The notes: generated by a model from the letters alone, not told the origin. A DNA stretch of 53,882 nt from an uncultured Clostridia bacterium (GCA_945877525.1 CAMDVP010000001.1:1-53882), one strand, 5' to 3'; shown: positions 1,672 through 52,340, numbered from the stretch's first letter. Translations and numbers: made by a program.

Positions 1672-1737
1672 ACGTTCCTCCATAAAAAGAAAAGCGGCGA
1701 TCTGTGATGCACACAAACCGCCGCAGACAAGTGATGT

Positions 1738-2880: not shown

Positions 2881-3951
2881 TCATCTTTCTATGTCATGCG
2901 TCTTTCGTTTGGCTGCTTTCGCAGCGGGAGCAGCTTCCTGAATAGCGTCTTTCTTCACAGTAGGATTCTGACGTTCCCGGATTTCTCTGCGAGCCTGCCA
3001 GATGAAGCCATCCAGCACGGCAGGATGAGAGTCAACGATGTAGTCGCTTCTGCGATCCAAGCCGCTTGCCGACTGTCCTTCCGGCAGATGCACAGAGAAT
3101 GCCCAATCCTTGTTGGAAGAAGAAAAGCGGCCATCCCAGGATTTGTACTGCACAGTTGCCGCAAGCACGATGGAGACGCGCTCTGCACCATACTGGTCGA
3201 GTACCTCCTGGGCCGTCTCTTTGTCCAGGTGCATCCCGTCGAAATGGCGAGATATGGCGTCCTGAATATCATTCTTGCAGGCGATATTCGTGCGATGGGA
3301 GAGTCGGAAAAGCTCCAGCTCGCCGTTCTCGCGCGCATACGCTGCGGTTTCGTAGTATACGGGGGTTTTGTTGATCGGGTCCATATTTCCCTCCTGTTTG
3401 GTTTTCTGATCCTGCAGGTACACTCTTACAACTTCCTGTTTTTCTTGCTCGGCACCAGAGAGAAGAACATCCAGCTGATACTCCACCTCATCCAGATGAC
3501 GGATTGCTTCAAGAAAACACGGGTGAAGATCATCGTCCGGTGTCTGCGGCGCGAACTCTTCCTTCCACTGCACCAACTGGTTTCTGTACGCTGCCAACTC
3601 ATGATAGCAGTAGGATACCTGATGATGAAATCTCTCCGCATCGCTCACCGTTATTGGCGTTTTTGGCTTTGGCGATTTCTCAGGTTCATCGACGACTGCG
3701 ATACCGAAATCGGATGCAATCTTCAATGCAGCATTCCTTGGAGACAGGTCAAACAGACGGGCTGCAAAGTCAACCACATCGCCATCTGCATGACACCCAA
3801 AGCAATGAAAGCGTTTATCGACCTTCATGCTTGGATCATGATCAGAATGGAATGGACATCTGCACATGCCATTTCTACCAACGGGGACGCCATAATGCTC
3901 TGCTGCCTCTCTGGTGGTAACTGCTTTTTTCACTGAATCAAATAGGGACAT
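2881..3951 (-). CDS. CHC2 (primase-type) zinc-finger protein with DUF3849-like C-terminal domain
   Basis: CRCPFHSDHDPSMKV...FHCFGCHADGDVVDF is the CHC2 zinc-finger signature. No TOPRIM catalytic domain is evident. Confidence 0.75.
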   Translation of the reverse strand: MSLFDSVKKAVTTREAAEHYGVPVGRNGMCRCPFHSDHDPSMKVDKRFHCFGCHADGDVVDFAARLFDLSPRNAALKIASDFGIAVVDEPEKSPKPKTPITVSDAERFHHQVSYCYHELAAYRNQLVQWKEEFAPQTPDDDLHPCFLEAIRHLDEVEYQLDVLLSGAEQEKQEVVRVYLQDQKTKQEGNMDPINKTPVYYETAAYARENGELELFRLSHRTNIACKNDIQDAISRHFDGMHLDKETAQEVLDQYGAERVSIVLAATVQYKSWDGRFSSSNKDWAFSVHLPEGQSASGLDRRSDYIVDSHPAVLDGFIWQARREIRERQNPTVKKDAIQEAAPAAKAAKRKTHDIER

Positions 3952-5092: not shown

Positions 5093-8000
5093 TTAGCGCT
5101 CATTATCAGAATGCGAAATGTCCTTTTGCCGAGTACCGGATGATCTGTCCATGTTCAGCGCCGCGTCCAGCTCTGCCAGTCGTGCGCTCTTGGTTCTCAG
5201 TTCAGCTTCCTGCGGGAAGGGTTTCCCGGCTTCCGTCCTGGCTGCTTCAATCTGTTGCCTGATGGTCGTAAGGTGCTCCGTTGTGGCTGCCAGCCTCTTG
5301 GGAATCTGCGCGATGGCGTTATCAAGACGTGTGATATTGCCTCGCGCATCGTTGCCGACCTCCATCGGATGCGAAACAGCGCCGTGCAGCGTGAGTACGA
5401 ATTTGTTGATGAAGGAATCAAACTGTACGCGCATGGGCAGCCCGCGATAGGAGCCAAACTCGACCGGCGCGCCCTTGGCAGCATCCTTGCAGGCCGCGAG
5501 GATGGCCTTGCCCGCTTCTTCCTTGTCCGTGATCAGCTTGTCGCCCACAGTCATGCCCACGAAATCCTCCTGCGGGAGCGGATGCGCCTCAATGGTGGCA
5601 ATGTCCTTTTGGAAACCGGCGATAAGCTGCGTATCCCGCTCAACCTCTTGGGGGAAGTATTTGAGCAGCTGATCTTCCAACCTGAACTGCTTGCTCTGGT
5701 GGTCTGCCTTCATCAGCTTCAGACGTGCTACGTCCACATCCAGATCCATCTTCTCTTTGATTCGCGGGTCGCCGGCGCATAGCGCTTTGATTTCCGCATA
5801 GGAGAGCGCCGTCTCATCCATGTCCTCGCAGGAACGAACGGGGCTTTTGCTGGTCATGATCTGAGAAATGAACTTCTGCTTATTCTCAACCGTCTGCCAG
5901 AGATACGCATCAAACGTCGCCTCCGTGACATAGCGGAAGATGGACACCTCCGGGTTCATGTTGCCCTGACGGACAATACGTCCAGCCCGCTGTTCCAAAT
6001 CGCCGGGACGCCACGGACAGTCGAGATCATGTAGCGCGATTAGTCTATCCTGCACGTTGGTACCCGCCCCCATCTTGGCAGTGCTGCCCATGAGCACACG
6101 CACCTGACCGGAGCGCACCTTGGCGAACAGCTCCTTCTTCTTGACTTCTGTATTGGCTTCATGGATGAAGGCAATCTGCTCGGCAGGAACACCGTGGGCG
6201 ATGAGCTTTTCCCGAATGTCGTCATAGACGTTGAAGGTGTTTTCCTGTGATGGTTCATCCGCAAGAAAGGGTTCGCTTCCATTTTGCGTAGTAGTCGCTG
6301 CACCTGTACCCTTGGGCGTGGAAATATCGCAGAAGACGAGCTGGGTCAGCTTATCCTCCTGACCGGCTTCCCAGATGCGCAGGATGTTGCTGACGCAGGC
6401 GTTGACCTTGCTGGCCGGATCATCCGGCAGCAGCGGATTGATGAGACGCTGATCGAGGCCGAGCTTGCGCCCGTCGCTGGTGATCTTGAGCATGTTGTCC
6501 ACCGTGGGATCGACCTGCTTATTATGGACTGCCGCTGCGCGTTCGGAAAGTGCCTGCACCATTTCCTCCTGCTGCGCGGTGGGCTTGACCACGACCGTTT
6601 CGTATTTCACATCGGGTGTCGGGAGCTGGAGCTGATCCGCCGTCTTGATGTCAGCGACCTCGCGGAAGACGTTCATCAGCTCAGGCAGGTTGAAGAACTT
6701 CGCAAAGCGCGTGCGCGCCCGATAGCCTGTGCCCTCAGGAGCCAGCTCAATCGCTGTCGTGGTTTCGCCAAAGGTGGACGCCCAGCAATCGAAGTGCGTC
6801 ATGCCGCTGCGCTGCAAAGCGCCGTATTGCAGATAGCGCTGCATCGTATACAGCTCCGTCATGGAGTTGCTCACGGGCGTGCCTGTGGCGAAGATGATGC
6901 CGCGCCCGCCGGTCAGCTCGTCCATGTAGCGGCACTTCATGTACATGTCGCTGGATTTCTGCGCCTCGGAGGTAGAAATGCCCGCCACGTTGCGCATTTT
7001 GGTGTATAAAAATAAGTTTTTGTAGCTGTGCGCCTCGTCCACATACAGCCGATCTACACCGAGCTGCTCAAAGGTAACGACATCATCCTTGCGTTCCTCG
7101 GCGCGCAGCTTTTCGAGCTTGAGCTCCAGCTGCTTTCTGGATTTCTCCAGCTGCTTGATGGAAAAGCGCTCGCCGTTGTTGCTTTTCAGCTCCTCGATGC
7201 CCTCCATGATTTCGGCAATCTCGTCCTGGAGCAGCTGCTCCTGACGCTCATGCGAGACAGGGATTTTCTCAAACTGCGAGTGACCAATGATCACCGCGTC
7301 ATAATCGCCCGTGGCAATTCTCGCACAGAATTTCTTTCGGTTGCCAGTCTCAAAATCCTTTTTCGTCGTAACCAGAATGTTGGCGGAAGGGTAAAGACGC
7401 AGGAACTCGGAAGCCCACTGCTCCGTCAGGTGATTGGGCACGACGAACATGCTTTTTTGGCACAGGCCAAGCCGCTTGCTTTCCATGGCAGCCGCTACCA
7501 TCTCGAACGTCTTGCCCGCGCCCACCTGATGGGCAAGCAGCGTGTTGCCGCCGTACAGGACATGGGCGACAGCGTTCCGCTGGTGTTCCCGCAGAGAAAT
7601 CTCCGGGTTCATGCCAGCGAAAACAATATGGCTGCCGTCGTATTCGCGTGGACGAACAGAGTTGAACAGCTCATTGTACTGCGTCACCAGCGTCTGCCGC
7701 CGCTCAGGGTCTTTCCAGATCCATTCGCGGAAGGCATCCTTGATCGCCTGCTGCTTCTGCTGCGCGAGGGTAGTCGCTTTCTGGTTGAGCACGCGCTGCT
7801 CTTTTCCGTCCGCATCCTGCACAGTGTCGTAGATGCGCACATCCCGCAGGTTCAGCGTATCCTCCAGAATCTTGTAGGCATTGGCCCTGTCCGTACCGTA
7901 GGTGGTATACGCGGCGACATTGGAGCGGGACACGACATTCTTGCCGTTGATGCGCCACTCGGCGGTATGGGGCGAGAAGTGTACCTCGATGGCACGGCGC

Positions 8001-11000
8001 TGGTAATACGGGGTATTGAGCAGCTCGTACATGAAGTCCTGAATGTACTCCGGCGCGATCCACGTCGCGCCCAGCCGCACGTCAATGTCGGACGCCTCCA
8101 AATCCTTGGGCTGTGCGGCTTCCAGCGCCGTCACATTGGGCTGAAAGGCAGCGTCCGACTGCACAGCGGTTCTGGCCTCGCGCAGCTTTTGCCGCACATT
8201 GCCGGACAGGTATTCATCTGCCGTCACATACTGCGCCTCGGTGCCGGGGATTCGGAAGATGACGCCTGTCAGCTCCTGAACGATGTCCTCCTCGCTTTTC
8301 CCGGTCAGCTGGGCCATATAGCCGAGGTCAACCCTGGCGCGCTCCCCGATGGACACCGCCAGAGCATCAGCAGAGGTGTCCACATGATCGACGCTGCGCT
8401 GCTGCTTGATCGTCCGCTTTGTAAACATATCCGCCTTCCGCAGCAGCTTGTGATCATCATCGAGGATTTCGAGCGAGCAGAGCAGGTAGTAGGAGGAATC
8501 CGAGGAAAACGCAAGGCGGTTTGCACGGTCATTAATGAGGCCAAAGCGTGCGGAGAAGCTGTCATACAGAGTATTCAGCTCCTGCTGAAGCTGCTCAATT
8601 TCCCCGTCGCCGTGCTCATCGAGCTGCGCGTCGATCAGCTTGCGCACCTGATCCCGCAGGGCAATCATCCCCTTGACGCGCTCCTGCGCCGTCTGATTCA
8701 GGTGTGGCTTCACCATGCGGCTGTTCTCGCGGTAATAGACGGTGCCGTCGATCACCGTATACGAGAAGTTGCGCACGTCGGGATCAGCGGGAATGGATTC
8801 ATCTATCGCTTCATTGTCGCCCAGATCGGGCAGCGCCGCTTCCTGATAGGTGCCGTGGATATGGCCAATTGCCTCATGCAGCTGATCTGCGAGGCTCACG
8901 CCCTCTTTCGGGAGAACGGTGAAGCTCTCCCGGCCGTACTGCGTATTCTCCTTCGCCAGCGTGCCCAGAATCATCTCCGGGTGCTGAACAAAGTAGCTGT
9001 TCATGGTCAAGCCATCTGCGTCTTCACCCACATGCACCCAGTCCGGCTCAATCTCGATGGCTCGATCCCGCTTTTGCAGGAAGATGATGTCCGAAACGAC
9101 TTCTGTGCCCGCGTTGGCGCGAAAGGCGTTGTTGGGCAGCCTGATCGCGCCCAGCAGCTCCGCACGCTGCGCGATATATCTGCGCACCTCCGGGGACTGC
9201 TGATCCATCGTGTAGCGGGAGGTGACAAAGGCAATCACGCCGCCCGGGCGCACCTGGTCGATGGCCTTGGCAAAAAAGTAATTATGAATGGAAAAACCGA
9301 GCTTATTGTAAGCCCGGTCGTTGACCTGATAGTTGCCAAAGGGCACATTGCCGATGGCGAGGTCGAAGAAGTCGCGCCTGTCCGTCGTTTCAAAGCCCGC
9401 GACGGTGATGTTGGCCTTGGGATAAAGCTGCTGTGCGATGCGCCCTGTGATACTGTCCAGCTCTACGCCGTACAGGCGACTGGCCTGCATTCCTTCCGGC
9501 AGCATTCCGAAGAAATTTCCAACGCCCATCGACGGCTCCAGAATGTTGCCGCCGGTGAAGCCCATCTGCGCGACAGCATCGTACATCGCCCGAATGACGA
9601 CAGGGCTGGTGTAGTGTGCGTTGAGCGTCGAGGCGCGCGCCGCCTCGTATTCCTGCGGTGTGAGTATGGCGGCAAGTTGCCGGTATTCATCTGCCCACGC
9701 CGGCTTGTCGGGGTCAAAGGCATCTGCCAGACCGCCCCAGCCCACATAGCGCGAGAGCACCTCCTGCTCCTGCGGCGTTGCTGCACGTCCTTCAGCTTCA
9801 ATCTGCTTGAGCGTTCGGATGGCGGCAAGGTTGTTGCCATACTTGGCCTTCGCACCGCCCTCGCCGAGATGATCATCCGTGATGCGGAAGTTCTCTGCAG
9901 CAGGCTGAGTTGGCTGATGATGTGCAGGTTCTTCCACGCGAAGCCGCTCAATGACCACATCATAGGGCAAGCCGTTTTTCTCACCCGGATAGACGGCTTC
10001 CGTTTCTGTTGTAAATGTGTGTCCTTCTTTTACAGAGTCAGACGAAAGCAGACCCGTATTGCGCTCATCCAACATCAGCAACTGTTCAAAGCGCTCGATG
10101 CTCTCTGAGCGGAAGATGGGATAAGCCTGAGAAGGGTCCTGAAGCTGTATATTGAAATGCCCGATCTGGGTAATGACGAAGGGGCGGTCATCCAGATAGA
10201 CGGTATCGCCGACCTTGTACGGGTGCTCCTGCGCAGCGTATTCGGATGAACCCTCTCCTTCGTTTTGAGCAGGAGATTCTGTGCTATCCCGCTCAGCCTG
10301 AAGCTGCTCCGCCAGCTCCGTTACCTGCTGAATGAACGGGCTGTCTCTGAGTGCTTCCTCATCCACAACCTCGCCATTGACGATGCCCGCGTCAGCCAGA
10401 TGCTCACGCACGGCTTCGGTGTCGATGGATTCGTCATCATCCGGCATTTCTACGTTCGCTTCTACGCCATCCGAGAAATCAGATTCCGGAGCAGGCTCGT
10501 TCGTTTCGGTTTGTACTTCCTCGGCTTCCTGGAACACTCCGATGCTTTCCAGTTCCTTTGGCGTCATATACCGGTCACGCGCGATCATGACGTCAATCCG
10601 CTTTACCACCTGCGCCCAGCTGAGCTGAACAGGCGGGCAGCCTTCCTTTTCCAGTTTGATGCCCTTGCCGTCATGGCTTTCTCCGCTGCGGTCAGAGCCT
10701 GACACCGCATGGGAGCGCCCGCCGATGCCATACTCTTCTTTCAGAAAATCCGCCTTTTCCTTGGGCGTATGCGCGGGATATGCCGTAAAGAAGCGATAGA
10801 TTCTGCCCTTGCCGCCAGCCATGCTGCTCCCACTGGCAAGCTGCGCATCTATCTCATCCTCGGTGATGAAGGCTGCCGGCCTTGCCACCTCCGTCAGCAG
10901 GGATTCGTATTCCCTGCGGGGAAGGGCAAGCTCTCTGAGCGACCGAGCCAGTGCAGCCGGGTTGTGGAAACGGAATCGCAGGAGATTTCGGTTTTGCGCA

Positions 11001-12760
11001 TAGGCCTCGGCAAAGGCATCCATCTCTGCGGTGATGCCGGACAGAAAAGCCGGATGAGCCAGATGTTCAGCCAATCGTGCTGTTTCGTCCGGAAAGCCGC
11101 CGCCGTGAATGGGTTCCAGGGAGGGAAGAAAGGCTTTGCCTTCGGGCGTTGTGTCTCCATACAGATTCCACAGGCGCTGAGCGATCATGGCGCGCTCATG
11201 TGCAGGGGCAGTCGCCAACTCCATCATGCTTGTGAACTGCCCGTTTTCCAACAGTTCGCCGATGCGTTTTGCGGCATCCTCCCAGGACATGACCTGCGCA
11301 ATCCGTGCATACCGAGCAGAGCCACCGGGCGCGAAGCGAATCCCATCCTCCGCATACCATGCGCTGATGCGCCCATGCTCCGTGGCCATGCCGTTGCCGC
11401 CGTGATAAACCTGCCGAAGAACCTGGGCCATTTCTTCAACCGGCTTTCCCTTGGAAAACTCGGCAGCCAGAATCAGACGGTGATTGGTGGTGTTACCGCC
11501 CGTGCGCAGGATGTCATCCATGTCCTCCTGCGGAACAGAAAAAGCGAAGGGCGTCGCCGGGACGCTCTCCGCTTCCATGTGTTCAATCAGCGCAATCTGC
11601 TCCGATTCGCCGGGAATGATGAAGCTCATCTGCTCCAGCACGGGGTCGTAATCCGTCAGGCGTAGATCATCTCCGACAGAATCGTCTCCTCGGCCTGCGC
11701 CTGCAGCGCGTTCATGCTCTGCACCCAGGCCATCTGATCCCGCGCCTTCAGCGCCTCCGTCACGCCCGCCTGCTTCGTCAGCTCGTTCATCAGGCTTTCG
11801 AGCCGGTTCTGCGCCGTCTGCTCGATCTCCTGCAGGTGCTCCATCAGCTTCCCGCTGAGCATCAGCCTCGTGTACAGCCCCGGACGATTCTCCTCCAGAT
11901 AGCGCTGTCTCATCAGGCCGTACTTGCCCAACGGCATTTGCTCCGCTTCGGTCAGCCCCAGGTCGGGCAGCAGATAGTCCCCGCTCTGCCTGTACTTCAG
12001 TTCGATCATGTTCCATGCTCCTTTCTGTCTGCCTGATTGTCATTTCAATCTGCCGCAGCACCTGGCCTGTGATCATGCTGACCGCGTTGCCAAGCTCCCC
12101 GGCAGTTGCAGGGGTGTTGAAGTTTATCACCTCGGTGAAGTCCTCCCGGTACAGCTCCGGCTCCAGTCCGCATCGCAGCTGAAGGCTGTACGCGATGCTG
12201 ACTGTTGCCGCCTGTCTGAAGGACGCTCCGATGTTGAAATCATCATACTCCGATAGGAAGGAATCCGCAACGCTGTCGATGATGTCACGCCTGTGATCGC
12301 GCCAATAGGCCAGCGCCTGCTGGCTGGCAATCTGATTGATCTGCTCCGCGAGAGGCATTTCAGCGTCCGCGTTGTATACCTCTTCCAGCATCCTGCGGAC
12401 AGCTTGCTCCGTCTGTTCGGTTATTCGCCACGGCTCGACATCTCTCGACTCACGACGAGTGCCGGTGTCCGATACATCAAAGACATAGCGCACACCCATT
12501 CCGCCAGAACCGGCTGTCAGCAGCGCAATGCCCTTGGAGCCGCGCCGGATGTACCGGTGCATGGTATTATTCCAGAGATCGTACTCGGCACAGGCCGTTG
12601 CATCCGGGCGCTGGGCATAGATCAGCAGCTGATCACGATATGGGTACTTGTACAGTCTGGATGATGTGCCCAGAAAAGCCGCCCAATCCAAATAATCTCC
12701 AGTAATCTTTCGGGCGGTATCATCAGCCAGTGAAGCGTAAATCTGTGCCTTTGTAGCCAT
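5093..12760 (-). CDS. Polyvalent protein: ArdC-N-like ssDNA-binding domain, low-complexity linker, N6-adenine DNA methyltransferase and SNF2/DEAH helicase
   Basis: The ArdC-N-like part reads YPYRDQLLIYAQRPDATACAEYDLWN..RRGSKGIALL. Methylase motif I is ILEPSMGVGNF (about 9512-9546) and motif IV is GNVPFG (9335-9352). Helicase motif I is AHQVGAGKT (7502-7534), motif II is VDEAHSY (7022-7042) and motif VI is QRAGRIVRQGN (about 5961-5996). ATG at 12760 follows AGGAGAAATAC. Confidence 0.85.
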   Translation of the reverse strand: MATKAQIYASLADDTARKITGDYLDWAAFLGTSSRLYKYPYRDQLLIYAQRPDATACAEYDLWNNTMHRYIRRGSKGIALLTAGSGGMGVRYVFDVSDTGTRRESRDVEPWRITEQTEQAVRRMLEEVYNADAEMPLAEQINQIASQQALAYWRDHRRDIIDSVADSFLSEYDDFNIGASFRQAATVSIAYSLQLRCGLEPELYREDFTEVINFNTPATAGELGNAVSMITGQVLRQIEMTIRQTERSMEHDRTEVQAERGLSAARPGADRSGANAVGQVRPDETALSGGESSGAVHEADAQREADGAPAGDRADGAEPARKPDERADEAGGRDGGAEGAGSDGLGAEHERAAGAGRGDDSVGDDLRLTDYDPVLEQMSFIIPGESEQIALIEHMEAESVPATPFAFSVPQEDMDDILRTGGNTTNHRLILAAEFSKGKPVEEMAQVLRQVYHGGNGMATEHGRISAWYAEDGIRFAPGGSARYARIAQVMSWEDAAKRIGELLENGQFTSMMELATAPAHERAMIAQRLWNLYGDTTPEGKAFLPSLEPIHGGGFPDETARLAEHLAHPAFLSGITAEMDAFAEAYAQNRNLLRFRFHNPAALARSLRELALPRREYESLLTEVARPAAFITEDEIDAQLASGSSMAGGKGRIYRFFTAYPAHTPKEKADFLKEEYGIGGRSHAVSGSDRSGESHDGKGIKLEKEGCPPVQLSWAQVVKRIDVMIARDRYMTPKELESIGVFQEAEEVQTETNEPAPESDFSDGVEANVEMPDDDESIDTEAVREHLADAGIVNGEVVDEEALRDSPFIQQVTELAEQLQAERDSTESPAQNEGEGSSEYAAQEHPYKVGDTVYLDDRPFVITQIGHFNIQLQDPSQAYPIFRSESIERFEQLLMLDERNTGLLSSDSVKEGHTFTTETEAVYPGEKNGLPYDVVIERLRVEEPAHHQPTQPAAENFRITDDHLGEGGAKAKYGNNLAAIRTLKQIEAEGRAATPQEQEVLSRYVGWGGLADAFDPDKPAWADEYRQLAAILTPQEYEAARASTLNAHYTSPVVIRAMYDAVAQMGFTGGNILEPSMGVGNFFGMLPEGMQASRLYGVELDSITGRIAQQLYPKANITVAGFETTDRRDFFDLAIGNVPFGNYQVNDRAYNKLGFSIHNYFFAKAIDQVRPGGVIAFVTSRYTMDQQSPEVRRYIAQRAELLGAIRLPNNAFRANAGTEVVSDIIFLQKRDRAIEIEPDWVHVGEDADGLTMNSYFVQHPEMILGTLAKENTQYGRESFTVLPKEGVSLADQLHEAIGHIHGTYQEAALPDLGDNEAIDESIPADPDVRNFSYTVIDGTVYYRENSRMVKPHLNQTAQERVKGMIALRDQVRKLIDAQLDEHGDGEIEQLQQELNTLYDSFSARFGLINDRANRLAFSSDSSYYLLCSLEILDDDHKLLRKADMFTKRTIKQQRSVDHVDTSADALAVSIGERARVDLGYMAQLTGKSEEDIVQELTGVIFRIPGTEAQYVTADEYLSGNVRQKLREARTAVQSDAAFQPNVTALEAAQPKDLEASDIDVRLGATWIAPEYIQDFMYELLNTPYYQRRAIEVHFSPHTAEWRINGKNVVSRSNVAAYTTYGTDRANAYKILEDTLNLRDVRIYDTVQDADGKEQRVLNQKATTLAQQKQQAIKDAFREWIWKDPERRQTLVTQYNELFNSVRPREYDGSHIVFAGMNPEISLREHQRNAVAHVLYGGNTLLAHQVGAGKTFEMVAAAMESKRLGLCQKSMFVVPNHLTEQWASEFLRLYPSANILVTTKKDFETGNRKKFCARIATGDYDAVIIGHSQFEKIPVSHERQEQLLQDEIAEIMEGIEELKSNNGERFSIKQLEKSRKQLELKLEKLRAEERKDDVVTFEQLGVDRLYVDEAHSYKNLFLYTKMRNVAGISTSEAQKSSDMYMKCRYMDELTGGRGIIFATGTPVSNSMTELYTMQRYLQYGALQRSGMTHFDCWASTFGETTTAIELAPEGTGYRARTRFAKFFNLPELMNVFREVADIKTADQLQLPTPDVKYETVVVKPTAQQEEMVQALSERAAAVHNKQVDPTVDNMLKITSDGRKLGLDQRLINPLLPDDPASKVNACVSNILRIWEAGQEDKLTQLVFCDISTPKGTGAATTTQNGSEPFLADEPSQENTFNVYDDIREKLIAHGVPAEQIAFIHEANTEVKKKELFAKVRSGQVRVLMGSTAKMGAGTNVQDRLIALHDLDCPWRPGDLEQRAGRIVRQGNMNPEVSIFRYVTEATFDAYLWQTVENKQKFISQIMTSKSPVRSCEDMDETALSYAEIKALCAGDPRIKEKMDLDVDVARLKLMKADHQSKQFRLEDQLLKYFPQEVERDTQLIAGFQKDIATIEAHPLPQEDFVGMTVGDKLITDKEEAGKAILAACKDAAKGAPVEFGSYRGLPMRVQFDSFINKFVLTLHGAVSHPMEVGNDARGNITRLDNAIAQIPKRLAATTEHLTTIRQQIEAARTEAGKPFPQEAELRTKSARLAELDAALNMDRSSGTRQKDISHSDNER
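11656..12009 (-). CDS. tnpV: TnpV-family small protein, nested in an alternate frame of the polyvalent ORF
   Basis: The 117-aa product carries GDYLLPDL, LGKYGLMRQRYLEE, SGKL..HLQEIE and GVTEALKARDQMAWVQSMN, matching my recollection of TnpV. GAAAGGAG lies 8 nt upstream of the ATG at 12009. Confidence 0.65.
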   Translation of the reverse strand: MIELKYRQSGDYLLPDLGLTEAEQMPLGKYGLMRQRYLEENRPGLYTRLMLSGKLMEHLQEIEQTAQNRLESLMNELTKQAGVTEALKARDQMAWVQSMNALQAQAEETILSEMIYA

Positions 12761-12776
12761 GTATTTCTCCTTCCTG

Positions 12777-13007
12777 TTAATATTGGTCAATCATGAAATC
12801 AGGTGCGATGTCAGCTACAAGCTGGTCATATTCTTCATCGCTCATCCTGCAAAGACTGGCAATGACCTCTTCAGACAGTCTCTTGAGATCAGTTTCATCG
12901 TATGCCAGGTAGTGCATCATATCTCGCAACTCAGCAATCGTGCCAAGGCGGGTTCCCTCATTGTAAAGACAGATCAGCGTGATCTCTTCCGTGCGAAACT
13001 GGTTCAA
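12777..13007 (-). CDS. Transposon-transfer-assisting (TTA) family small protein
   Basis: 76 aa with EEITLICLYNEGTR and MSDEEYDQL motifs. TTG start follows GAAGGTGA; no in-frame ATG lies nearby. Confidence 0.55.
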   Translation of the reverse strand: MNQFRTEEITLICLYNEGTRLGTIAELRDMMHYLAYDETDLKRLSEEVIASLCRMSDEEYDQLVADIAPDFMIDQY

Positions 13008-13024
13008 GCAGTCACCTTCTTTCG

Positions 13025-13384
13025 TCAGATTTCGTCGCTTTTCGCGCAGTCAGCACAGCACGCAGGTTCACTTGTGGTGTGCCAATATGGCTGCTGACAG
13101 ATGTCGCATTGCCTCAGGCTTTGCGGATATATCTCTTCGGGGGCCTCACTGTCATCCCCGCCATACCATAGCGCATACGCCACGAGATCCTGAAGATCCC
13201 AATCAGCAGGCAGCACAACCTCCAGAAAGTAATCACAGTCGATTGCACCATCCTGAACGGATTGATAATTGGTGTTGATGATGTGGCAGCGTTCATCAGT
13301 CAGCGCGCAATTACCGGCATGGTAGTTGGCACACTCTTCATGAGCAAGCGCCCGGATGTGCTTGAGTATTTGTTTGTTCGTCAT
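13025..13384 (-). CDS. Cysteine-rich VLP protein
   Basis: Multiple Cys clusters plus the family-naming VLP motif (EVVLPADWDL). SD is GAGGT. Confidence 0.65.
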   Translation of the reverse strand: MTNKQILKHIRALAHEECANYHAGNCALTDERCHIINTNYQSVQDGAIDCDYFLEVVLPADWDLQDLVAYALWYGGDDSEAPEEIYPQSLRQCDICQQPYWHTTSEPACCADCAKSDEI

Positions 13385-13436
13385 GGGTACCTCAATTCTC
13401 GCAGGGGCAAGGCTTGCCCCTGACGAGAGAAGGACA

Positions 13437-14072
13437 TCACGCCGGGTGGCGGATGTCCTCCTCAGTCAGATAGATGCCATAACGGCCCAGCTCAGGGATG
13501 GCGTTGTTCTCAGCATCGTTCCGCGCACGCTGAAAGTCGCCGTCACCGCTATTTACATTGAGCGTACTCAGGGAATAGACAGGGGTGTCCAGCCTAAGCT
13601 CCCGATACTCGTTATAGCGGGCAATCTGCCAGATGCCATTCTTTCGGCACAGGTAATCCATGACACCAACCAGGAACAGCGCACAGCGATATTGCCCATC
13701 GTCATAGAGACGCTCGACCCACTCATTCTGGTCGATTCCGTCGATGAACGCCAGATCGCCGGTGGCGCGAAGCCTGCCCAGCATGGAGTCTGCCAGAACG
13801 TAGAAGTTCATCAGGGAGTGATCGTCATGAACAGGAATACGGGTATGAGCAGCACGCCCTAGCGCAAGCTCTTCCCAGTAGTCTTCGAGAATGTCCTCGA
13901 CGCTGACATCCAGCGCATACGCAAGGTTGTACAGGGTTACTGCTTCGCAGCGATCCAACTGCGCTTTGCCGTTCAGAATGTCGCGCAGCGTGGACTCGGG
14001 GATATTGCTGCTGGCGCTCAGTTCAGCGCGGGTCAGGTTTCGGGAGTTCATCAGGTTATTCAGAAACATCAT
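13437..14072 (-). CDS. XRE-family HTH protein with unassigned C-terminal domain of about 140 aa
   Basis: N-terminus NLTRAELSASSNIPESTLRDILNGK is a Cro/C1-type HTH. The start lies 1 nt after the upstream stop. Confidence 0.7.
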   Translation of the reverse strand: MMFLNNLMNSRNLTRAELSASSNIPESTLRDILNGKAQLDRCEAVTLYNLAYALDVSVEDILEDYWEELALGRAAHTRIPVHDDHSLMNFYVLADSMLGRLRATGDLAFIDGIDQNEWVERLYDDGQYRCALFLVGVMDYLCRKNGIWQIARYNEYRELRLDTPVYSLSTLNVNSGDGDFQRARNDAENNAIPELGRYGIYLTEEDIRHPA

Positions 14073-14073
14073 A

Positions 14074-14997
14074 TTATCTCTCCATTTCTTGTGTCTTGGG
14101 TTTGATGGTCGGCGCGGGGGTATTCAGCGTCGTTTTCTGCTCGCGCCTATATGCCCGCTGCGTTTCCTTGTCATAGCAGTAAAGGTAGAAGTTGTAATCC
14201 CCGCGCTGCGGAATGCAGCGGAGGCAGTATTCGTATCGGCTGGTTTCAGCACGATACCCATAATGACCATTTCCAAGGGCTCCATCATAACTGCAGCCCT
14301 TGCGCATCGACGCAAAATTCGACAGCAGACCGCCTTCATTGCGCAGGCCATCGACAATCGTTTGAAGCTCCTGCCGAAATTCCTCATTGTTCAGCTTGGG
14401 CGAATGGTCGAACCAGCTCGTCCAGAACTCAGTGCCGCTTCTGCCGAAATCCCCCCGCAAGTGGCCGACACAGCCGCGCTCAGCATCTGTTTCTTCATGA
14501 CTCGAATACAGCCAGTCCGCCTTTTCTGCTTCAACAGGTTTCCAGGTTATCTGATTATTCAGGTCGTGCTCCACGTCTTTGAGTATGCTTTCAAACGCAT
14601 ACAGCGCGGTGCGGGTATAATCACCATAGATCAATGAGACATCAGGGGTGGACATCCCTTGCTGCTCGGCAAAGGATGATGTATCTGCTGCATCCAGCCA
14701 TGAGGTAAGCTCAGCCTGTAAATCACTCACAAGCTCAGTCATGGATTCGCCTTGGTCACCCGCATACATCAGCTCTTCCACACCCGCATCCGGGTCTTCA
14801 GAGGAAAATGAGAGCATCAGCTCCGAGCTGTTCCCTGTTCGGGTGTAGGTCAGGACTGTATCATTTGGATAGTCAAAGGTGTAGCTTCGCACGATTTGCT
14901 CATCTGGAGTATCGGTGTCCGGCTCCGGACGGTCATATTGGCTGTCGCGCCAGTTCTCAAAGGATTCCATGGACTGATTCATGTACATTCGCATCAC
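14074..14997 (-). CDS. Hypothetical ICE accessory protein
   Basis: Long ORF in operon context with an acidic N-terminal half. Several candidate ATGs exist; the one at 14988 has the best spacing from GAGGAG. Confidence 0.5.
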   Translation of the reverse strand: MMRMYMNQSMESFENWRDSQYDRPEPDTDTPDEQIVRSYTFDYPNDTVLTYTRTGNSSELMLSFSSEDPDAGVEELMYAGDQGESMTELVSDLQAELTSWLDAADTSSFAEQQGMSTPDVSLIYGDYTRTALYAFESILKDVEHDLNNQITWKPVEAEKADWLYSSHEETDAERGCVGHLRGDFGRSGTEFWTSWFDHSPKLNNEEFRQELQTIVDGLRNEGGLLSNFASMRKGCSYDGALGNGHYGYRAETSRYEYCLRCIPQRGDYNFYLYCYDKETQRAYRREQKTTLNTPAPTIKPKTQEMER

Positions 14998-15007
14998 TCC
15001 TCATTGC

Positions 15008-15607
15008 TCAGCGTTCCGGGTCATTCCTGGAAATGCTCCTGGAACGGATATGGGATGAAGCAGGCTTGTCATGGTCATTGAGCAATCTGGGCGCAGAGAA
15101 TTTCGCCGCGCGTTCTTCCTTGGGCCCGTTGTTGACGATCCCGTCGATCATGTTGTAATCATCCTCGAGCATCATTTCGGCGTTCTTCAGTGCGTTTTCG
15201 TGCTCAAGAAAGGCAGGCAGCTTATAGAATCCAAAGCTGTCCGTGTAATAGCATTCGGTTTTTCCGCCCTGGTTGAGAGCAATCACATCGCTGACGCTCA
15301 GGCTGTGACCGCGAAAATCATCGGGACGATTGAGGTTGAAGCGGGTGTACAGTCCTTCGAGAATGGATTCGGGCGTTTTGCAAGAAGCAAGATCAGATGA
15401 GAGCACGCCGGAGTAAACAAGGTCATACCGGCTTTCCGTCACACCAAGCGCGGCGTCTGCGTGGTTGCCTTCCCTTCGGTTGAGGCTGCGCAGCTCTGAC
15501 AGGCTGGCAAAGCGCAGGCTGTGGTACTGAGGATCAGACTTCAGCTGATAAATCGCAAAGCCATTTTCGGGAAGCTCGCGTGGATTCTGACCGGTTTTGT
15601 CCATCAT
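15008..15607 (-). CDS. YodL-like plus DUF4316-like domain protein
   Basis: The YodL-like part reads FAIYQLK...LEGLYTRFNLNRPDDFRGHSLSVSDVIAL and the DUF4316-like part reads EDDYNMIDGIVNNG. SD is GGAGGTGA. Confidence 0.65.
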   Translation of the reverse strand: MMDKTGQNPRELPENGFAIYQLKSDPQYHSLRFASLSELRSLNRREGNHADAALGVTESRYDLVYSGVLSSDLASCKTPESILEGLYTRFNLNRPDDFRGHSLSVSDVIALNQGGKTECYYTDSFGFYKLPAFLEHENALKNAEMMLEDDYNMIDGIVNNGPKEERAAKFSAPRLLNDHDKPASSHIRSRSISRNDPER

Positions 15608-15664
15608 AGGATCACCTCCAAAAGCAGAGCGCCGGCATCGCTGCCAGCGCCCTGCGCAGGTCGT

Positions 15665-16585
15665 TTATTCGCAGACCACCATGTCGCTGGTTCTGGCTCC
15701 ATCGGAGATCACCAGCGAATACTGGTACGAGCCATCCGCCTTGACCTGACGGCAGATGCGCAGGCCGTACTGCTCCGTGGCAGAGCCGCGCGCCAGTGTC
15801 AACTCGAACTCCGATTCATTGAGGTAACGGTCACGGCGGGTATCGTAAAAGTCAATCGACCACGTACCCGACCATTCCATCTCGCGCCCGCTCTCCAGCT
15901 GTGTCCTGCCGGTCATCGTTCCATCCTCGCGGAAGGTGATGCGGCTTGCGTTGATGGAGCTGCCCGCATACAGCCGCCAGCTGCCGAGCATGGCCTGACG
16001 CGCCTCGCTCAGCTCCATCACCGTCTCATACAGGCAGGCGGACGGCACAAAGCCGCGGAACCGCTCCTTGTCTGCCTCGGCTTCAATGTACGTCCATTCG
16101 CCCATGGTGCCCAGGCAAGTTACCCTCGTGTTTTCCGTCAGGCGTGCGAGGGGCGTGCGGCTGACCAGCGGATCATCTGTCACCTCCACATCGTAATGCA
16201 CCACGGAGGGGATGCTCGTGAGATTCAGCTCTGGCACCGTGACACCAGCGGGCAGCGCGTTCTTGTAGATGTAGCCGATGCGGTTGTGCGTATCGGTAAT
16301 GTCGTACTGCACGAGAATCCAGTCGTCCTCGCTGCCAAACACCTGAATCCAGCCGTTGGTGCTGACGCGGGCGCGGCCCTTTGCGCCGCGGATGCTCCTG
16401 CTGTCGGGCGCGGAATAGACGGGATAGGTCTGGTTTGAGGTAAAGGAGATCAGGGAGGCATTCAGCGTCCCCGCGGGAATCGACGGCACATTGGCGGTGT
16501 CGATCATTGTCGTGGCAGGCTCATCGGCCAAAGCAATCGCACAAAGCATAATCAGGGTGAGAATCAGAGTAAGCAGTTTCTTCAT
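15665..16585 (-). CDS. Secreted protein with SH3b-like N-terminal region
   Basis: Signal peptide MKKLLTLILTLIMLCAIALA, followed by repeats resembling bacterial SH3 (YPVYSAPDS...GWIQVFG; RVTCLGTMGEWTYIE). Confidence 0.5.
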   Translation of the reverse strand: MKKLLTLILTLIMLCAIALADEPATTMIDTANVPSIPAGTLNASLISFTSNQTYPVYSAPDSRSIRGAKGRARVSTNGWIQVFGSEDDWILVQYDITDTHNRIGYIYKNALPAGVTVPELNLTSIPSVVHYDVEVTDDPLVSRTPLARLTENTRVTCLGTMGEWTYIEAEADKERFRGFVPSACLYETVMELSEARQAMLGSWRLYAGSSINASRITFREDGTMTGRTQLESGREMEWSGTWSIDFYDTRRDRYLNESEFELTLARGSATEQYGLRICRQVKADGSYQYSLVISDGARTSDMVVCE

Positions 16586-16608
16586 ATTGTATTTTGGCTC
16601 CTTTCTTG

Positions 16609-18705
16609 TCAGTCGAAGGTGGGGCGGAGAATGGGTTTGCCGTCAGCATTGTAGTCAAGATGCAGCGTGGCAGCATATTGGGTATGGGTCTTTGCGGAGC
16701 GCAGGCCGACCTTGCGGACGCAGCCCTTCTCCAGCAGCTCCTTCACATCGCCGGAGGTCAGCGGCTTCTCCGCGTCCTTCAGAATGCCGCCGGTCTTCCA
16801 CAGCGCAAAGCTGCAGGTTCGGTTCTCGCACATATACCCCTTCGCACGCTCGGTGATCGCCGCACCGCACTTTGGACAGGCGCCGAGCGCCTCCCGTAGC
16901 GGCGGGAAAAGCTGCTCAGCATTCTTAGCACGCTTGGTGTCATGAGCTAGCTCATCCACAAACTGTCGAATATCGCGCATGAAGTCCTCAGACTTCTCCT
17001 GTCCCTGCTCGATGCGTCCCAGCCGCTGCTCCCACTCCGCTGTCAGCTGTGCGGAGCTCAGCTTGTCGGGCAGGATGGAGGTTAGCGCCTTTCCCTTGGC
17101 GGTCGGAATCAGGACTTTCTTTCGCTTTTCACCGACGCGCTCCACCAGCTTGGTTTCGATGAGCTTTTCCAGAATCGCCGCCCGCGTGGCAGGCGTGCCG
17201 ATCCCCTTGTGCTCCGCATCCTCCGGCATGTCCTCCTTGCCTGCGCTCTCCATCGCGTGCAGGATCGTCCCTTCGGTGTGATGGGCCGGAGGCGTGGTCT
17301 GCCCCTCACGGATTGCCGCCTTGGGGAAGGGAAACTCGAAGCCTTCGGTCATCTCTTCCGGCACCATCAGGGGATTGTCCGCATCCTTTTCATCGACACC
17401 TGCGCCGATGCTGCCGCGGAAGGCGCACCAGATGCGCTTCCACCCCATTTGCACAATGCGCTTACCTTTTGCAGTGAAGTCATGCCCGGCGCACTCGATA
17501 TGCAGGACGGTTTCCTCATAAACGCAGGGATTGTCCAGCGCGCAGAGCAGTCTTGCACAGACCAGAAACAGAAGATCATGTTCGCCGGTGGTCAGCGCCC
17601 GGATGGCCGCTTCCTGACCGGGCATCATGGTCGTCGGAATCAGCGCATGGTGATCCGTCACCTTGGCGTCATTGATCACCGCTTCAACGCGGATTGCGGG
17701 TTCAAGGCCATCTGCAAAAGGCAGTACGCCACAAACTCTGGAAGCCAGCTCGGGCAGCCCGGCTGCCATGTCATGCGTCAGATACCGGCTGTCGGTTCGC
17801 GGATAGGTCAGCAGCTTCTTTTCATACAGTCCCTGGGCGTAGTCGAGCGTCTGCTGTGCCGTGAAGCCATAGAGCTTGTTCGCGTCCCGCTGCAGGCTGG
17901 TCAGGTCATACAGCGCAGGCGGGTTCTCGTTCCGCTGCGTATGCTCCATCGACTTCACAACCGCATTGCTGTGATTGCAGGCATCCATCAGCTGGCGCGC
18001 TTCGTTGAGATCGGCAAAGCGTTCCGATTCGGCGCTCACGTCGCGCCCGGTATCCAGCACGACCTTGTAGAAGGTCTCCGGCCTGAACTCCGCAATATCC
18101 TTTTCTCTCTGCGAGAGCATGGCCAGCGTCGGGGACATGACGCGCCCGATATGCAGCGTCGGGCCGTAAAGCAGGGAGTACAGGCGCGTGGCGTTCATGC
18201 CGATGAGCCAATCCGCCTGGGCGCGGCAAAGCGCTGCCTGATACAGATTGTCGTAAGCGGACATCGGCTTCATGCTGCGGAAGCCCTCGCGGATGGCGCT
18301 TTCCTCCATCGAGGAGATCCACAGGCGGCGCACAGATTTCCGGCACTGCGCCGCCTGATAGACCAGCCGGAAGATCAGCTCGCCCTCGCGTCCTGCGTCC
18401 GTCGCGCAGATGATGCCCGTGACGCGGGGATCGTTCATCAGCGCCTTGAGGATATCAAACTGCTTTTTGGTTTCTGCGGTGACGGTGTACTGCCATTTCT
18501 CAGGGATGATCGGCAGATCCGCGTAGCGCCAGCGGGCGTACTTGGTATCGTAGACCTCAGGCAGCGCCAGCTCGACGAGATGCCCGACGCACCAGCTGAC
18601 CAGAAATCCCTTGCCCTGCAGATAGCCGTTCTGACGTTCGGTAGCGCCCACAACCTCCGCAATCGCCCTTGCGACACTCGGCTTTTCCGTAATAATCAAT
18701 TCCAT
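16609..18705 (-). CDS. topB: DNA topoisomerase III (type IA)
   Basis: TOPRIM start MELIITEKPS, active-site region LLTYPRTDSRYL and C-terminal zinc ribbon CPKCGAAI...CENRTCSF. Confidence 0.9.
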   Translation of the reverse strand: MELIITEKPSVARAIAEVVGATERQNGYLQGKGFLVSWCVGHLVELALPEVYDTKYARWRYADLPIIPEKWQYTVTAETKKQFDILKALMNDPRVTGIICATDAGREGELIFRLVYQAAQCRKSVRRLWISSMEESAIREGFRSMKPMSAYDNLYQAALCRAQADWLIGMNATRLYSLLYGPTLHIGRVMSPTLAMLSQREKDIAEFRPETFYKVVLDTGRDVSAESERFADLNEARQLMDACNHSNAVVKSMEHTQRNENPPALYDLTSLQRDANKLYGFTAQQTLDYAQGLYEKKLLTYPRTDSRYLTHDMAAGLPELASRVCGVLPFADGLEPAIRVEAVINDAKVTDHHALIPTTMMPGQEAAIRALTTGEHDLLFLVCARLLCALDNPCVYEETVLHIECAGHDFTAKGKRIVQMGWKRIWCAFRGSIGAGVDEKDADNPLMVPEEMTEGFEFPFPKAAIREGQTTPPAHHTEGTILHAMESAGKEDMPEDAEHKGIGTPATRAAILEKLIETKLVERVGEKRKKVLIPTAKGKALTSILPDKLSSAQLTAEWEQRLGRIEQGQEKSEDFMRDIRQFVDELAHDTKRAKNAEQLFPPLREALGACPKCGAAITERAKGYMCENRTCSFALWKTGGILKDAEKPLTSGDVKELLEKGCVRKVGLRSAKTHTQYAATLHLDYNADGKPILRPTFD

Positions 18706-18756
18706 ATTCTTTCCTCCGTGTATGCGTTACCCCGAAGCGGATGCTCCGGGGCTGTG

Positions 18757-20148
18757 TTACTTCTGTTCGGTGCTTTCGTCCTCGTCATCGTCGTCGAGAT
18801 CGAGCTCGCTGTCCGCACGTCGCGCGGTGGGCTGATTCCTGCCTTTCAGGAAAATGACCGCGCCAACGACACCGATGCCCACAATGGCGAAAAGCGCGAG
18901 CAGCGCCGTGGTCTTGTCGGTCGTGGGCTGCGCAGGTGCCTGCGTCGGCTGCGGCGTTATCGCGGGAACCGTAGTCGGTTCAGGGGTCACATAAATGATC
19001 TCCGGCGTAGGCGTGGGCACGGCTTCCTTTTCTTCATCGGACATCAGCGCCAACAGGTCGCGCTCATCGACGAGGTTCAGGAAATACGTCTCGTACATCT
19101 CTGCATCCTCGTCAACCGGCTTGTCGTAGTCGATGACAAGATAGAAAGTATTGCCGTTCTTTGTTTGCAGCGTGATGAACTGCTTGTTGGTTGCCGCAGA
19201 GTACAGCACATCCAGTGTATGGCTGTTGCCGTCCGCCTGATATGGCATACCGGGGCCGATGGTGATGTACTCGGTCTTGATGATCGTCTCCGGCGTGGGT
19301 GCGGCGGTCGGCTCCGTCGTGGGATCAGGCTCGTCCTGCACATAGATGAGCGAGCTGCCCAGGCCGCTAAAGTGGTTGGACGCAGGCGTCGGCGTAGCTG
19401 TGGGTGCAGCAGTCGGCGTGGCTGTCGTCTCATCAGCCGGCTTCTTCGTCGGCTTCGGCGTAGCCGTCGGCACGGGCGTGGGGTCGGCGGGCTTTTCATA
19501 ATGCGGATTGGAAAGCGTGACCGGCTCGGAGAAGTTGCCCGCATAGTCAAAGGCACGGACAGCCAGCTTCTCAAACTGGTTCATGTTCTGATCCAGCTCC
19601 ACATTCAGTGTACCGTTGACCAGCGTGGTGAACAGCATACTGTTGACCTGCACACCGGCGACGCCGGACAGATCATCTTTGGCATCAACCTGAAGGGTCG
19701 TGCCGTTGATGGACGCGGTCAGCACCGGCGCTGTCAGGTCGATGCACGTCACCTCCGCGCTTTCCTCGAACGCATGTCCATGCGGATCGGTCACGCGCAG
19801 GGTGAAAGTGCCATTTTCGTGGAGCGTCAGCTCAGCGCGGCCATCTGCAAACAGGTTTTCGCAGTCCACCCAGTTGCCGTCATCCATCCGGTACTCGATT
19901 CTCTGCCAGCCCAGCCTGTCTTTGTCCGTGATGGACACCTTCATGACGGCTCCGTTGCCGCTTGTCCAGCCGCCCGGCGCAGTCAGGATGATTCTGTACG
20001 GCGAGACGCTTTCCATGGGCACCTCCGTGGGCGCAGGCGCACCCTCCGCGATAGCCAAAGCGGGCGAAAAAGCTGCTGCACATGCAGCCAGCAGAAGAAA
20101 TACCGCCATACCCAGCGGCAGAACACGCTTACACATCGTCATCATCAT
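18757..20148 (-). CDS. DUF4366/CD1107-family mobile-element surface protein (signal peptide, Ig-like domain, Pro/Thr linkers, C-terminal TM)
   Basis: FYLVIDYDKP...YFLNLVDERDLLALM core, PT-rich linkers, C-terminal TM ALLALFAIVGIGVVGAVIF and an acidic tail. Confidence 0.7.
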   Translation of the reverse strand: MMMTMCKRVLPLGMAVFLLLAACAAAFSPALAIAEGAPAPTEVPMESVSPYRIILTAPGGWTSGNGAVMKVSITDKDRLGWQRIEYRMDDGNWVDCENLFADGRAELTLHENGTFTLRVTDPHGHAFEESAEVTCIDLTAPVLTASINGTTLQVDAKDDLSGVAGVQVNSMLFTTLVNGTLNVELDQNMNQFEKLAVRAFDYAGNFSEPVTLSNPHYEKPADPTPVPTATPKPTKKPADETTATPTAAPTATPTPASNHFSGLGSSLIYVQDEPDPTTEPTAAPTPETIIKTEYITIGPGMPYQADGNSHTLDVLYSAATNKQFITLQTKNGNTFYLVIDYDKPVDEDAEMYETYFLNLVDERDLLALMSDEEKEAVPTPTPEIIYVTPEPTTVPAITPQPTQAPAQPTTDKTTALLALFAIVGIGVVGAVIFLKGRNQPTARRADSELDLDDDDEDESTEQK

Positions 20149-20455
20149 CCATCACCTCCTCATCAGGCAGCGTGGCAGGAGCATCTGCATCGGCAAGCGC
20201 AGCCTGCACATCTTTGGGCAGCTCAGGCACCAGCCTGTCCCCAAACATGGATTTCATGATTTCCGCGAGCTGCTCCGGGGTCACGTTGTACAGCTCCGCC
20301 GTCGCATGGATGGCCGTGCGGTCAGCCTGCTTGACAAGGCCGCGCAGGTCTTCCACCTCTGCCTGAAGCTCGATCAGCTCCTGCTCCCGTCTGTCAAGCA
20401 GCGCATGGAGCTTCTGTCGGTCGGCGGGATAGCGCTTCTTTTTCTTTTCAGTCAT
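20129..20455 (-). CDS. DUF4315-like coiled-coil protein
   Basis: 108 aa with a coiled-coil N-terminus and acidic tail. SD is AAGGAGGAACC. It overlaps the next gene by 20 nt. Confidence 0.55.
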   Translation of the reverse strand: MTEKKKKRYPADRQKLHALLDRREQELIELQAEVEDLRGLVKQADRTAIHATAELYNVTPEQLAEIMKSMFGDRLVPELPKDVQAALADADAPATLPDEEVMDDDDDV

Positions 20456-32621: not shown

Positions 32622-32691
32622 TTGATTGCCTCTTTTCTGAATAGGAATAGGTAAGGAAAAGGCAGCGGTTTGGCCCGCTGCCTTCTTCAGT

Positions 32692-34725: not shown

Positions 34726-34740
34726 TGTATTTCCTCCTCC

Positions 34741-52322: not shown

Positions 52323-52340
52323 TTGAGAGGAGGACGTTCA

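Follow-up and report, generated by a model that had tools for sequence, protein, structure and literature searches.

A tnpV gene nested out of frame within a giant polyvalent-protein gene of a Clostridia integrative conjugative element: a probable case of dual coding

The stretch of DNA analysed here (hereafter the window) comprises 53,882 nucleotides (nt) from an uncultured Clostridia bacterium (GCA_945877525.1, CAMDVP010000001.1:1-53882) and is an integrative conjugative element carrying a relaxase, a coupling protein, a VirB4-like ATPase and an integrase. On its minus strand, an open reading frame (ORF) of 2,555 codons encodes a polyvalent protein, and a complete tnpV gene lies inside this ORF in a different frame of the same strand. 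An earlier note on this DNA, made from the sequence of the window, had pointed out this nesting. The features of the locus are given below, with the confidence of AlphaFold models expressed as the predicted local distance difference test (pLDDT).

5093-12760, minus strand: polyvalent-protein ORF, 2,555 codons, ATG at 12760, open from a TTG at 12790 and without a stop across tnpV
12002-12760, minus strand: N-terminal folded domain (N-domain), residues 1-253, with an ArdC-N-like core motif; pLDDT mostly 83-97
12018-12025, minus strand: Shine-Dalgarno (SD) sequence GAAAGGAG, 8 nt upstream of the tnpV ATG
11656-12009, minus strand: nested tnpV ORF, 117 residues, ATG at 12009 and TGA stop at 11658-11656, in the +1 frame relative to the large ORF
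11606-12001, minus strand: disordered interdomain linker, residues 254-385; pLDDT 22-46, no secondary structure
10931-11605, minus strand: first folded domain after the linker, residues 386-610 modelled; pLDDT 74-95 from residue 411
9152-9394, minus strand: DNA methyltransferase-like region; Pfam Eco57I E 3.6e-4, under the family cut-off, and NCBIfam MAD2 methyltransferase E 8e-6, partial
5963-7600, minus strand: SNF2-type helicase module, with the ResIII/SNF2 N-lobe at 7016-7600 and Helicase_C at 5963-6181

The nested 117-residue ORF was recovered with the coordinates and sequence described in the earlier note, and the SD placed there 8 nt ahead of its ATG was located as GAAAGGAG at 12025-12018 with an 8-nt spacer. 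Its assignment to the TnpV family, which the note had proposed to check with a profile hidden Markov model, was borne out by a full-length match to Pfam PF14198 (residues 5-115 of the product to profile positions 1-111 of 111, E 3.2e-42, 143.4 bits with a cut-off of 27). The product also matched PHROG 24764, for which no function is given (E 1.9e-36), and NCBIfam contained no model matching TnpV. An AlphaFold model with a mean pLDDT of 82 consists of a beta hairpin plus helices; no significant match to this model was obtained in PDB or BFVD, and a sequence search of PDB chains was likewise empty. Further traits of the family are present, namely a small ORF with its own ribosome-binding site, start and stop, situated inside a mobile element. 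The role of TnpV has only been postulated, as Xis-like in Tn4451 (PMC3158075).

In the large frame the same bases encode residues 251-368 of the polyvalent protein, coinciding with the segment (residues 254-385) found disordered, between two confidently modelled domains, in an AlphaFold model of the N-terminal part of the protein computed from an alignment of 48 sequences. As the note had described, this frame is open throughout and rich in Gly, Ala, Arg, Asp and Glu, which together make up 73% of the overlap compared with 40% of the whole protein; hydrophobic or aromatic residues account for 8% compared with 29%. Codon position 3 of tnpV is position 1 of the large frame, and the wobble bases of tnpV in the window (G 66%, C 24%, A 5%, T 5%) may be set against wobble frequencies of G 34%, C 34%, T 20% and A 12% in those codons of the large ORF that flank the overlap. 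The linker composition follows from these wobble positions, in keeping with the note's view of it as a by-product of tnpV coding.

Conservation of the nesting was then assessed. With residues 1-610 of the large protein as query, a protein search gave 2,477 proteins; homologues at 44-91% identity read through the linker stretch, and readthrough persisted down to 44-49% identity. A genome scan with one genome per species gave at least 591 related loci, the best 80 of which were used; these derive from different Clostridia genomes (Christensenellales, Oscillospiraceae, Lachnospiraceae and others), with AP012044.1, CP102274.1, AP025576.1 and CP173695.1 as complete genomes. A TnpV ORF of 114-119 residues with an ATG was present at the identical position and in the identical relative frame in 80/80 loci, at 47-96% identity to the TnpV of the window, and the large frame was open across it in 80/80. 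In all 80, GAAAGGAG or GAAAGGA was located 7-9 nt ahead of the tnpV ATG. With 22 more unique nested copies, taken from metagenome and IMG/VR contigs and from contigs carrying a close TnpV relative, a total of 102 unique nested copies contained no stop in either frame, and the third frame over tnpV contained 12-16. The note had argued that the locus cannot be split into conventional genes, and the lack of an in-frame stop in all 102 copies upholds this. Individual clusters of nested TnpV at 90% identity reach sizes of hundreds to thousands of sequences; two nested TnpV sequences recur in identical form on at least 1,000 contigs each.

These samples bear on whether the overlap in the window might be a sequencing or assembly indel artefact, which the note had wished to see excluded. 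Indels do occur in some contigs: proteins P0103, P0378, P0405, P0413, P0437, P0483 and P0493 begin in the N-domain or linker frame, shift to the TnpV frame at varying points and end at the tnpV stop, a single indel giving a chimeric ORF and not a truncation because both frames are open. However, such frame-switch proteins are a minority: among the best 150 N-domain representatives of clusters at 50%, they number 6, compared with 85 that have the full linker, and the two-frame arrangement was found in 80 independent assemblies, complete genomes included, and in dozens of metagenome contigs. An artefact is excluded by these assemblies, and the chance attached to it is vanishingly small.

Selection on the two frames was examined by codon position and by an overlap-aware estimator of the ratio of nonsynonymous to synonymous substitution rates (dN/dS), written for this analysis in the style of OLGenie. 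Read in the TnpV frame, nucleotide diversity of the overlap at codon positions 1/2/3 was 0.27/0.21/0.40, with an amino-acid diversity of 0.36; read in the large frame, the same sites are renumbered to 0.40/0.27/0.21, with an amino-acid diversity of 0.54. The corresponding values in the two flanks of the large ORF were 0.29-0.33/0.23-0.25/0.52-0.54 and 0.38-0.44. The overlap accordingly displays a normal coding pattern in the TnpV frame and an inverted pattern in the large frame. The estimator yielded a dNN/dSN of 0.21-0.34 for the TnpV frame, with no bootstrap replicate reaching 1, and on these estimates the TnpV frame is under purifying selection, residue by residue. With a ratio of about 1.3 in the large frame (dNN/dNS), conservation by residue is that of TnpV, and whatever conservation can be seen in the linker reflects it. 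The frame-specific test of constraint suggested in the note therefore returned purifying selection on TnpV and, for the large frame, a signal in openness and composition and not in residue identity.

The same values were used to weigh the reading of tnpV as a dead relic, in which the large protein alone is made and the TnpV frame is open by recent capture or by chance. That the role of TnpV is so far a postulate and that tnpV-deleted variants occur (P0373 and P0377) is consistent with a relic. This reading is nevertheless highly improbable, as dN/dS is 0.2-0.3 in the TnpV frame and about 1.3 in the large frame, codon-position diversity tracks the TnpV frame, the ATG and SD are kept in 80/80 loci with TnpV identity down to 47%, and the third frame has 12-16 stops.

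Openness of the large frame was evaluated against a null in which each TnpV was re-encoded with the codon usage of its own locus outside the overlap. A mean of 5.8 stops was expected (2.7-11.0 per locus) and none was observed in 73 unique sequences, for which the probability of an open frame had a median of 0.001 and a maximum of 0.05; for the window alone it was 0.02, given its TnpV protein and local codon usage. Shuffling of synonymous codons within each gene gave a median probability of 0.07. In 61 unique standalone tnpV genes the equivalent frame contained 1-9 stops, with a mean of 4.4. Wobble T preceding AA, AG or GA was found at 0 of 3,778 sites in nested copies, compared with 9.9% elsewhere, and at 13.5% in standalone copies, compared with 23.5% elsewhere.

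The bias extends beyond the avoidance of stops, as wobble T in nested tnpV is still 0.07 where the creation of a stop is impossible. Base frequencies at four-fold wobble sites were G 0.62, C 0.27, A 0.07 and T 0.04 in nested tnpV, G 0.31, C 0.33, A 0.15 and T 0.21 in standalone tnpV, and G 0.29, C 0.37, A 0.14 and T 0.20 in the flanks of nested loci. Codons starting with G specify Gly, Ala, Asp, Glu and Val, and those starting with T specify the aromatic residues, Cys, Leu and Ser; the preference for G over T therefore keeps the linker small, acidic and non-hydrophobic. We read this bias as composition-level selection on a translated linker; it would also account for the reduced wobble diversity of the overlap, 0.40 compared with 0.52-0.54 in the flanks. 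On these codon patterns, the large frame is kept open and linker-like, without selection on residue identity. Selection was found in each frame by a different signature, namely dN/dS for TnpV, and stop avoidance together with first-position G bias for the large frame.

A division into three conventional genes, i.e. the N-domain, tnpV and a large protein starting past tnpV, with the open frame between them not functionally translated, is quite unlikely, even though it is how the locus has been annotated: gene calls for GCA_025149285.1 (CP102274.1) and several metagenome contigs start the large protein 15-120 nt or more past the tnpV stop. In none of the 102 unique copies does the N-domain end at a stop of its own; without selection, 3-11 would be expected across tnpV, and standalone tnpV has 1-9. 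Conserved sequence (...QLxLF..P(T/S)ExEQI..I.EAE) resumes right after the tnpV stop, in the unchanged large frame, in all loci. The first in-frame ATG past tnpV is not conserved, being located 3-831 nt downstream depending on the locus (777 nt in 14 unique loci), and no conserved restart codon with an SD was found downstream of tnpV across loci. Such calls leave a 250-codon N-domain without a gene or under an antisense ORF, which looks like a limitation of gene callers. The indel artefact, the dead tnpV and the three separate genes were rejected outright.

The complete genome CP102274.1 (Hungatella hathewayi DSM 13479) illustrates the annotation. The gene calls on record, which may differ from the current RefSeq, place TnpV at 9001-9357 of the locus (L180) and a large protein of 2,540 residues from 9477, with no gene over the N-domain except an antisense ORF of 103 residues; read from the ATG at 8229 of the locus, the large ORF (8229-17099) has 2,956 codons. 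Other gene callers treat such loci in like manner. Calls on record for loci L086-L089 also list TnpV and a large protein starting past the tnpV stop, with the N-domain uncalled or covered by an antisense ORF. Nested products are listed in NCBI/UniRef as 'TnpV protein' (e.g. UWO85139.1 from Hungatella hathewayi).

How TnpV would be made was considered from the sequence around its start. Between -30 and +36 the only near-invariant bases in the 73 unique loci are GAAAGGA(G) and the ATG; the spacer between them and the first tnpV codons vary. In the large frame the SD encodes Glu-Arg, and E246 and R247 are invariant in protein alignments. No slippery sequence, stop or hungry codon is conserved at the frame junction over the same interval and loci, no extra synonymous constraint indicative of a hidden regulatory element was seen upstream of the SD, and standalone tnpV genes have an SD-ATG layout like that of nested copies. 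Since only the SD and ATG are invariant, no slippery motif is conserved and the standalone layout is alike, internal initiation is the simplest reading, and TnpV is probably translated from the ATG within the large ORF.

An SD-like element ahead of a frame change is known from prfB and dnaX. By analogy, GAAAGGAG might stimulate, in place of initiation or besides it, a programmed +1 ribosomal frameshift close to where the overlap begins, producing a fusion of the N-domain to TnpV; proteins P0378 and P0437 do join the N-domain in frame to TnpV. However, no slippery or stop-codon motif is conserved and the bases between and past the SD and ATG vary, the ATG, which initiation needs and frameshifting does not, is retained in every locus, standalone tnpV shares the SD-ATG layout, and the fusion proteins change frame at differing positions, as random indels would. 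A programmed frameshift is on these grounds very unlikely.

The reading that we favour, and consider likely, is that this part of the integrative conjugative element is a true dual-coding stretch under selection, serving both as a tnpV frame and as the linker frame of the polyvalent protein. A tnpV cassette with its own SD, ATG and stop would be embedded in the giant polyvalent-protein gene. Ribosomes starting at the polyvalent ATG would translate the tnpV DNA in a frame shifted by one base; the resulting linker, disordered, some 130 residues long and abundant in Gly, Ala, Asp, Glu and Arg, would connect the header domain with the remainder of the protein. Ribosomes starting at the internal ATG, at GAAAGGAG-N8-ATG, would make the 117-residue TnpV. 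Selection on the linker frame would work through the synonymous positions of tnpV, leaving almost no T and few A and doubling G.

Several points weigh against dual coding. The large-frame dNN/dNS of 1.3-1.4 amounts to no residue-level constraint; in simulations on the window sequence, the large-frame estimate was 0.86 (0.60-1.49) for a frame free of constraint, and 0.44 and 0.18 for omega values of 0.5 and 0.2, respectively, and the large-frame dSN/dSS was uninformative because doubly synonymous sites number about 3 per pair. The case for translation of the linker would accordingly be built on openness, composition and continuity of the frame, and production of both the linker and TnpV from its internal start is argued from sequence evolution. 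The 73 unique genome copies are phylogenetically related and form 26 clusters at 80% nucleotide identity, and the dN/dS estimator, codon nulls and neighbour-joining (NJ) trees are our own quick implementations. Lastly, the arrangement is not indispensable to the protein family: P0373 and P0377, which are located among linker-bearing relatives in the tree, have lost both tnpV and the linker by in-frame deletion, so that the N-domain is followed at once by the next domain, and a small separate clade (P0497, P0498 and P0506) has a Pro/Ala/Glu/Gln-rich linker at the equivalent position and no tnpV.

As to the origin of the dual-coding stretch, we infer that the tnpV frame predates the linker frame, and that either a tnpV cassette was inserted into an interdomain linker or neighbouring genes were fused across tnpV. 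The earlier note had offered overprinting and fusion across tnpV as two competing readings; they are not alternatives, as the former describes the present state and the latter its likely origin. Outside the nested loci, standalone tnpV genes adjoin relaxase, ParAB or serine-recombinase genes, and two small standalone groups fall inside the nested diversity in an NJ tree. In the L081 type (L081-L085, 5913-6354), a standalone tnpV adjoining DUF5699 and a relaxase has 84.5% nucleotide identity to the tnpV of the window; the homology begins 89 nt upstream, in N-domain coding sequence, and ends exactly at the tnpV stop, and the linker frame contains a single stop, 5 nt past the ATG. Standalone L149 and L162 have 4 stops in the linker frame. 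The L081 type, L149 and L162 look like escaped copies with a decaying second frame.

A reverse polarity, with TnpV born de novo in the alternative frame of the linker and later escaping as the standalone tnpV of Tn4451-type elements, is quite unlikely. It is left open by the escape-like copies of the L081 type, by the related clade with a plain linker at the equivalent position, and by nested copies being as diverse as standalone ones in an unrooted and sample-biased tree. The NJ trees of TnpV and the N-domain, which have no outgroup and reflect biased sampling, indicate no more than that a few standalone copies fall within the nested diversity.

The polyvalent ORF contains several unrelated domains in one reading frame and is flanked by conjugation genes, as is characteristic of polyvalent proteins. 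Within the helicase module, Pfam scores were E 1e-10 for SNF2-rel_dom, E 1e-6 for ResIII and E 1.5e-5 for Helicase_C. The description of the N-domain as ArdC-like in the earlier note was upheld in part. BLASTP of residues 26-81 (56 residues) gave E 6e-12 to a polyvalent protein with ArdcN among its precomputed Pfam entries; but the N-domain had no Pfam match at E up to 1 and no match in a sequence search of the PDB, and Foldseek placed ArdC (6i89) at an insignificant E of 2.2 with a template modelling score of 0.36. The most conserved block of the domain (YVFDVSDTG, RRGSKGIALL), which is the ArdC-N-like core, is also its worst-modelled part (residues 51-110, pLDDT only 44-58), which makes the fold assignment tentative.

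Non-coding signals and antisense frames were also recorded. A promoter scan of 11400-13100 yielded no sigma-70-like site. Two overlapping weak terminator-like hairpins with T-rich tails lie at 11543-11565 on the minus strand, about 100 nt past the tnpV stop and inside the large ORF; the 3 weak terminator-like hairpins in the 1.7 kb scanned, with 0.8 expected, were judged uninformative. Long plus-strand ORFs are situated opposite the polyvalent gene (7028-10108, 1,026 residues) and the topoisomerase and CD1107-like genes (17209-20259, 1,016 residues). The sense genes seldom use TTA, CTA and TCA (the large ORF has 17 among its 2,556 codons, and zero between 10108 and 7015), and both antisense ORFs are probably a by-product of codon usage.

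Further genes of the integrative conjugative element are listed below; the three SpaA-type genes may encode adhesins or a pilus.

235-1716, minus strand: MobA/VirD2-type relaxase
2881-3951, minus strand: DUF3849 / primase zinc-ribbon protein
13025-13384, minus strand: Cys-rich VLP protein
13437-14072, minus strand: helix-turn-helix protein
15008-15607, minus strand: YodL / DUF4316 protein
16609-18705, minus strand: topoisomerase
18757-20148, minus strand: CD1107-like protein
21236-23215, minus strand: NlpC/P60 hydrolase
23228-25627, minus strand: VirB4-like ATPase
27386-29350, minus strand: coupling protein
30249-37548, minus strand: three large tandem genes for SpaA-type surface proteins (841, 677 and 935 residues) with SpaA or prealbumin-fold repeats
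41933-44074, minus strand: DnaB-like helicase, a cargo or maintenance gene
48303-49544, minus strand: Y-family (ImpB/MucB) polymerase, a cargo or maintenance gene
52323-53747, plus strand: tyrosine integrase

It is rare in bacteria for a long same-strand overlap to be conserved and under selection in both frames. Before 2019, only comS and rpmH had been characterised as cases of this kind (PMC11230408). The closest likeness is to comS in srfAB of Bacillus subtilis and gndA in gnd of E. coli, small nested same-strand genes with their own internal start (PMC12915044; PMC11230408), in that a small gene is contained wholly within a much larger coding sequence in another frame. They differ in that comS and gndA encode peptides of 36-46 residues that arose over an older enzyme gene, whereas tnpV encodes a 117-residue member of a widespread Pfam family that is also found standalone, and the host ORF here would use the newer, unconstrained frame as a disordered linker. 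Expression of comS and gndA has been demonstrated, while that of the nested tnpV is predicted from sequence.

Viral overprinting is reported to include de novo frames over disordered regions, as with polyomavirus ALTO/middle T over large T (PMC3494269, PMC8227390, PMC4446436). The resemblance consists of two proteins that a single piece of DNA encodes, or here would encode, with one frame that is constrained and folded, another that is disordered and fast-evolving, and a codon usage distorted in the overlap; the present case differs in being a bacterial conjugative element whose disordered frame is a segment of a 2,555-residue multidomain protein and not a separate small protein. The standalone TnpV of Tn4451/Tn4453 and related mobilisable or conjugative transposons is like the nested TnpV in family (PF14198), size and SD-ATG layout, and its genes likewise occur in mobile elements close to relaxase or recombinase genes (PMC3158075). 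It differs in not being overlapped, with 1-9 stops in the linker frame and a wobble T of 0.21 and G of 0.31, compared with 0.04 and 0.62 in nested copies. The polyvalent proteins of conjugative elements surveyed by Iyer et al. 2017 (PMC5512222) share with the large ORF the giant multidomain form, an N-terminal header (here only tentatively of ArdC-N type), a methylase-SNF2 helicase pair and a type IV secretion context, but that concept does not include an embedded second gene such as the window ORF has. The words TnpV, overlapping, frameshift and linker are all absent from the survey (PMC5512222). The note's author had seen neither reading of the locus described, and no published description of the nested tnpV overlap was found in the open-access literature, although one may exist outside that scope; a search of a plasmid collection for annotated examples gave one weak partial match without annotation.

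The nested arrangement is very common in human and animal gut Clostridia, and the tnpV overlap is large, at 354 nt, and, with TnpV identities down to 47%, also old. Its polarity would be unusual, with a folded, pre-existing gene engulfed and its alternative frame supplying new linker sequence. It would provide a natural example of the recruitment of a disordered segment, in which the synonymous sites of one gene have been taken over by the needs of another. Gene callers cannot represent such an arrangement, and surveys of the domain architecture of polyvalent proteins will miss or mis-assign the 250-residue header. For the element itself, the overlap would couple TnpV production to the transcript that encodes a protein with a presumed early role in the recipient cell.

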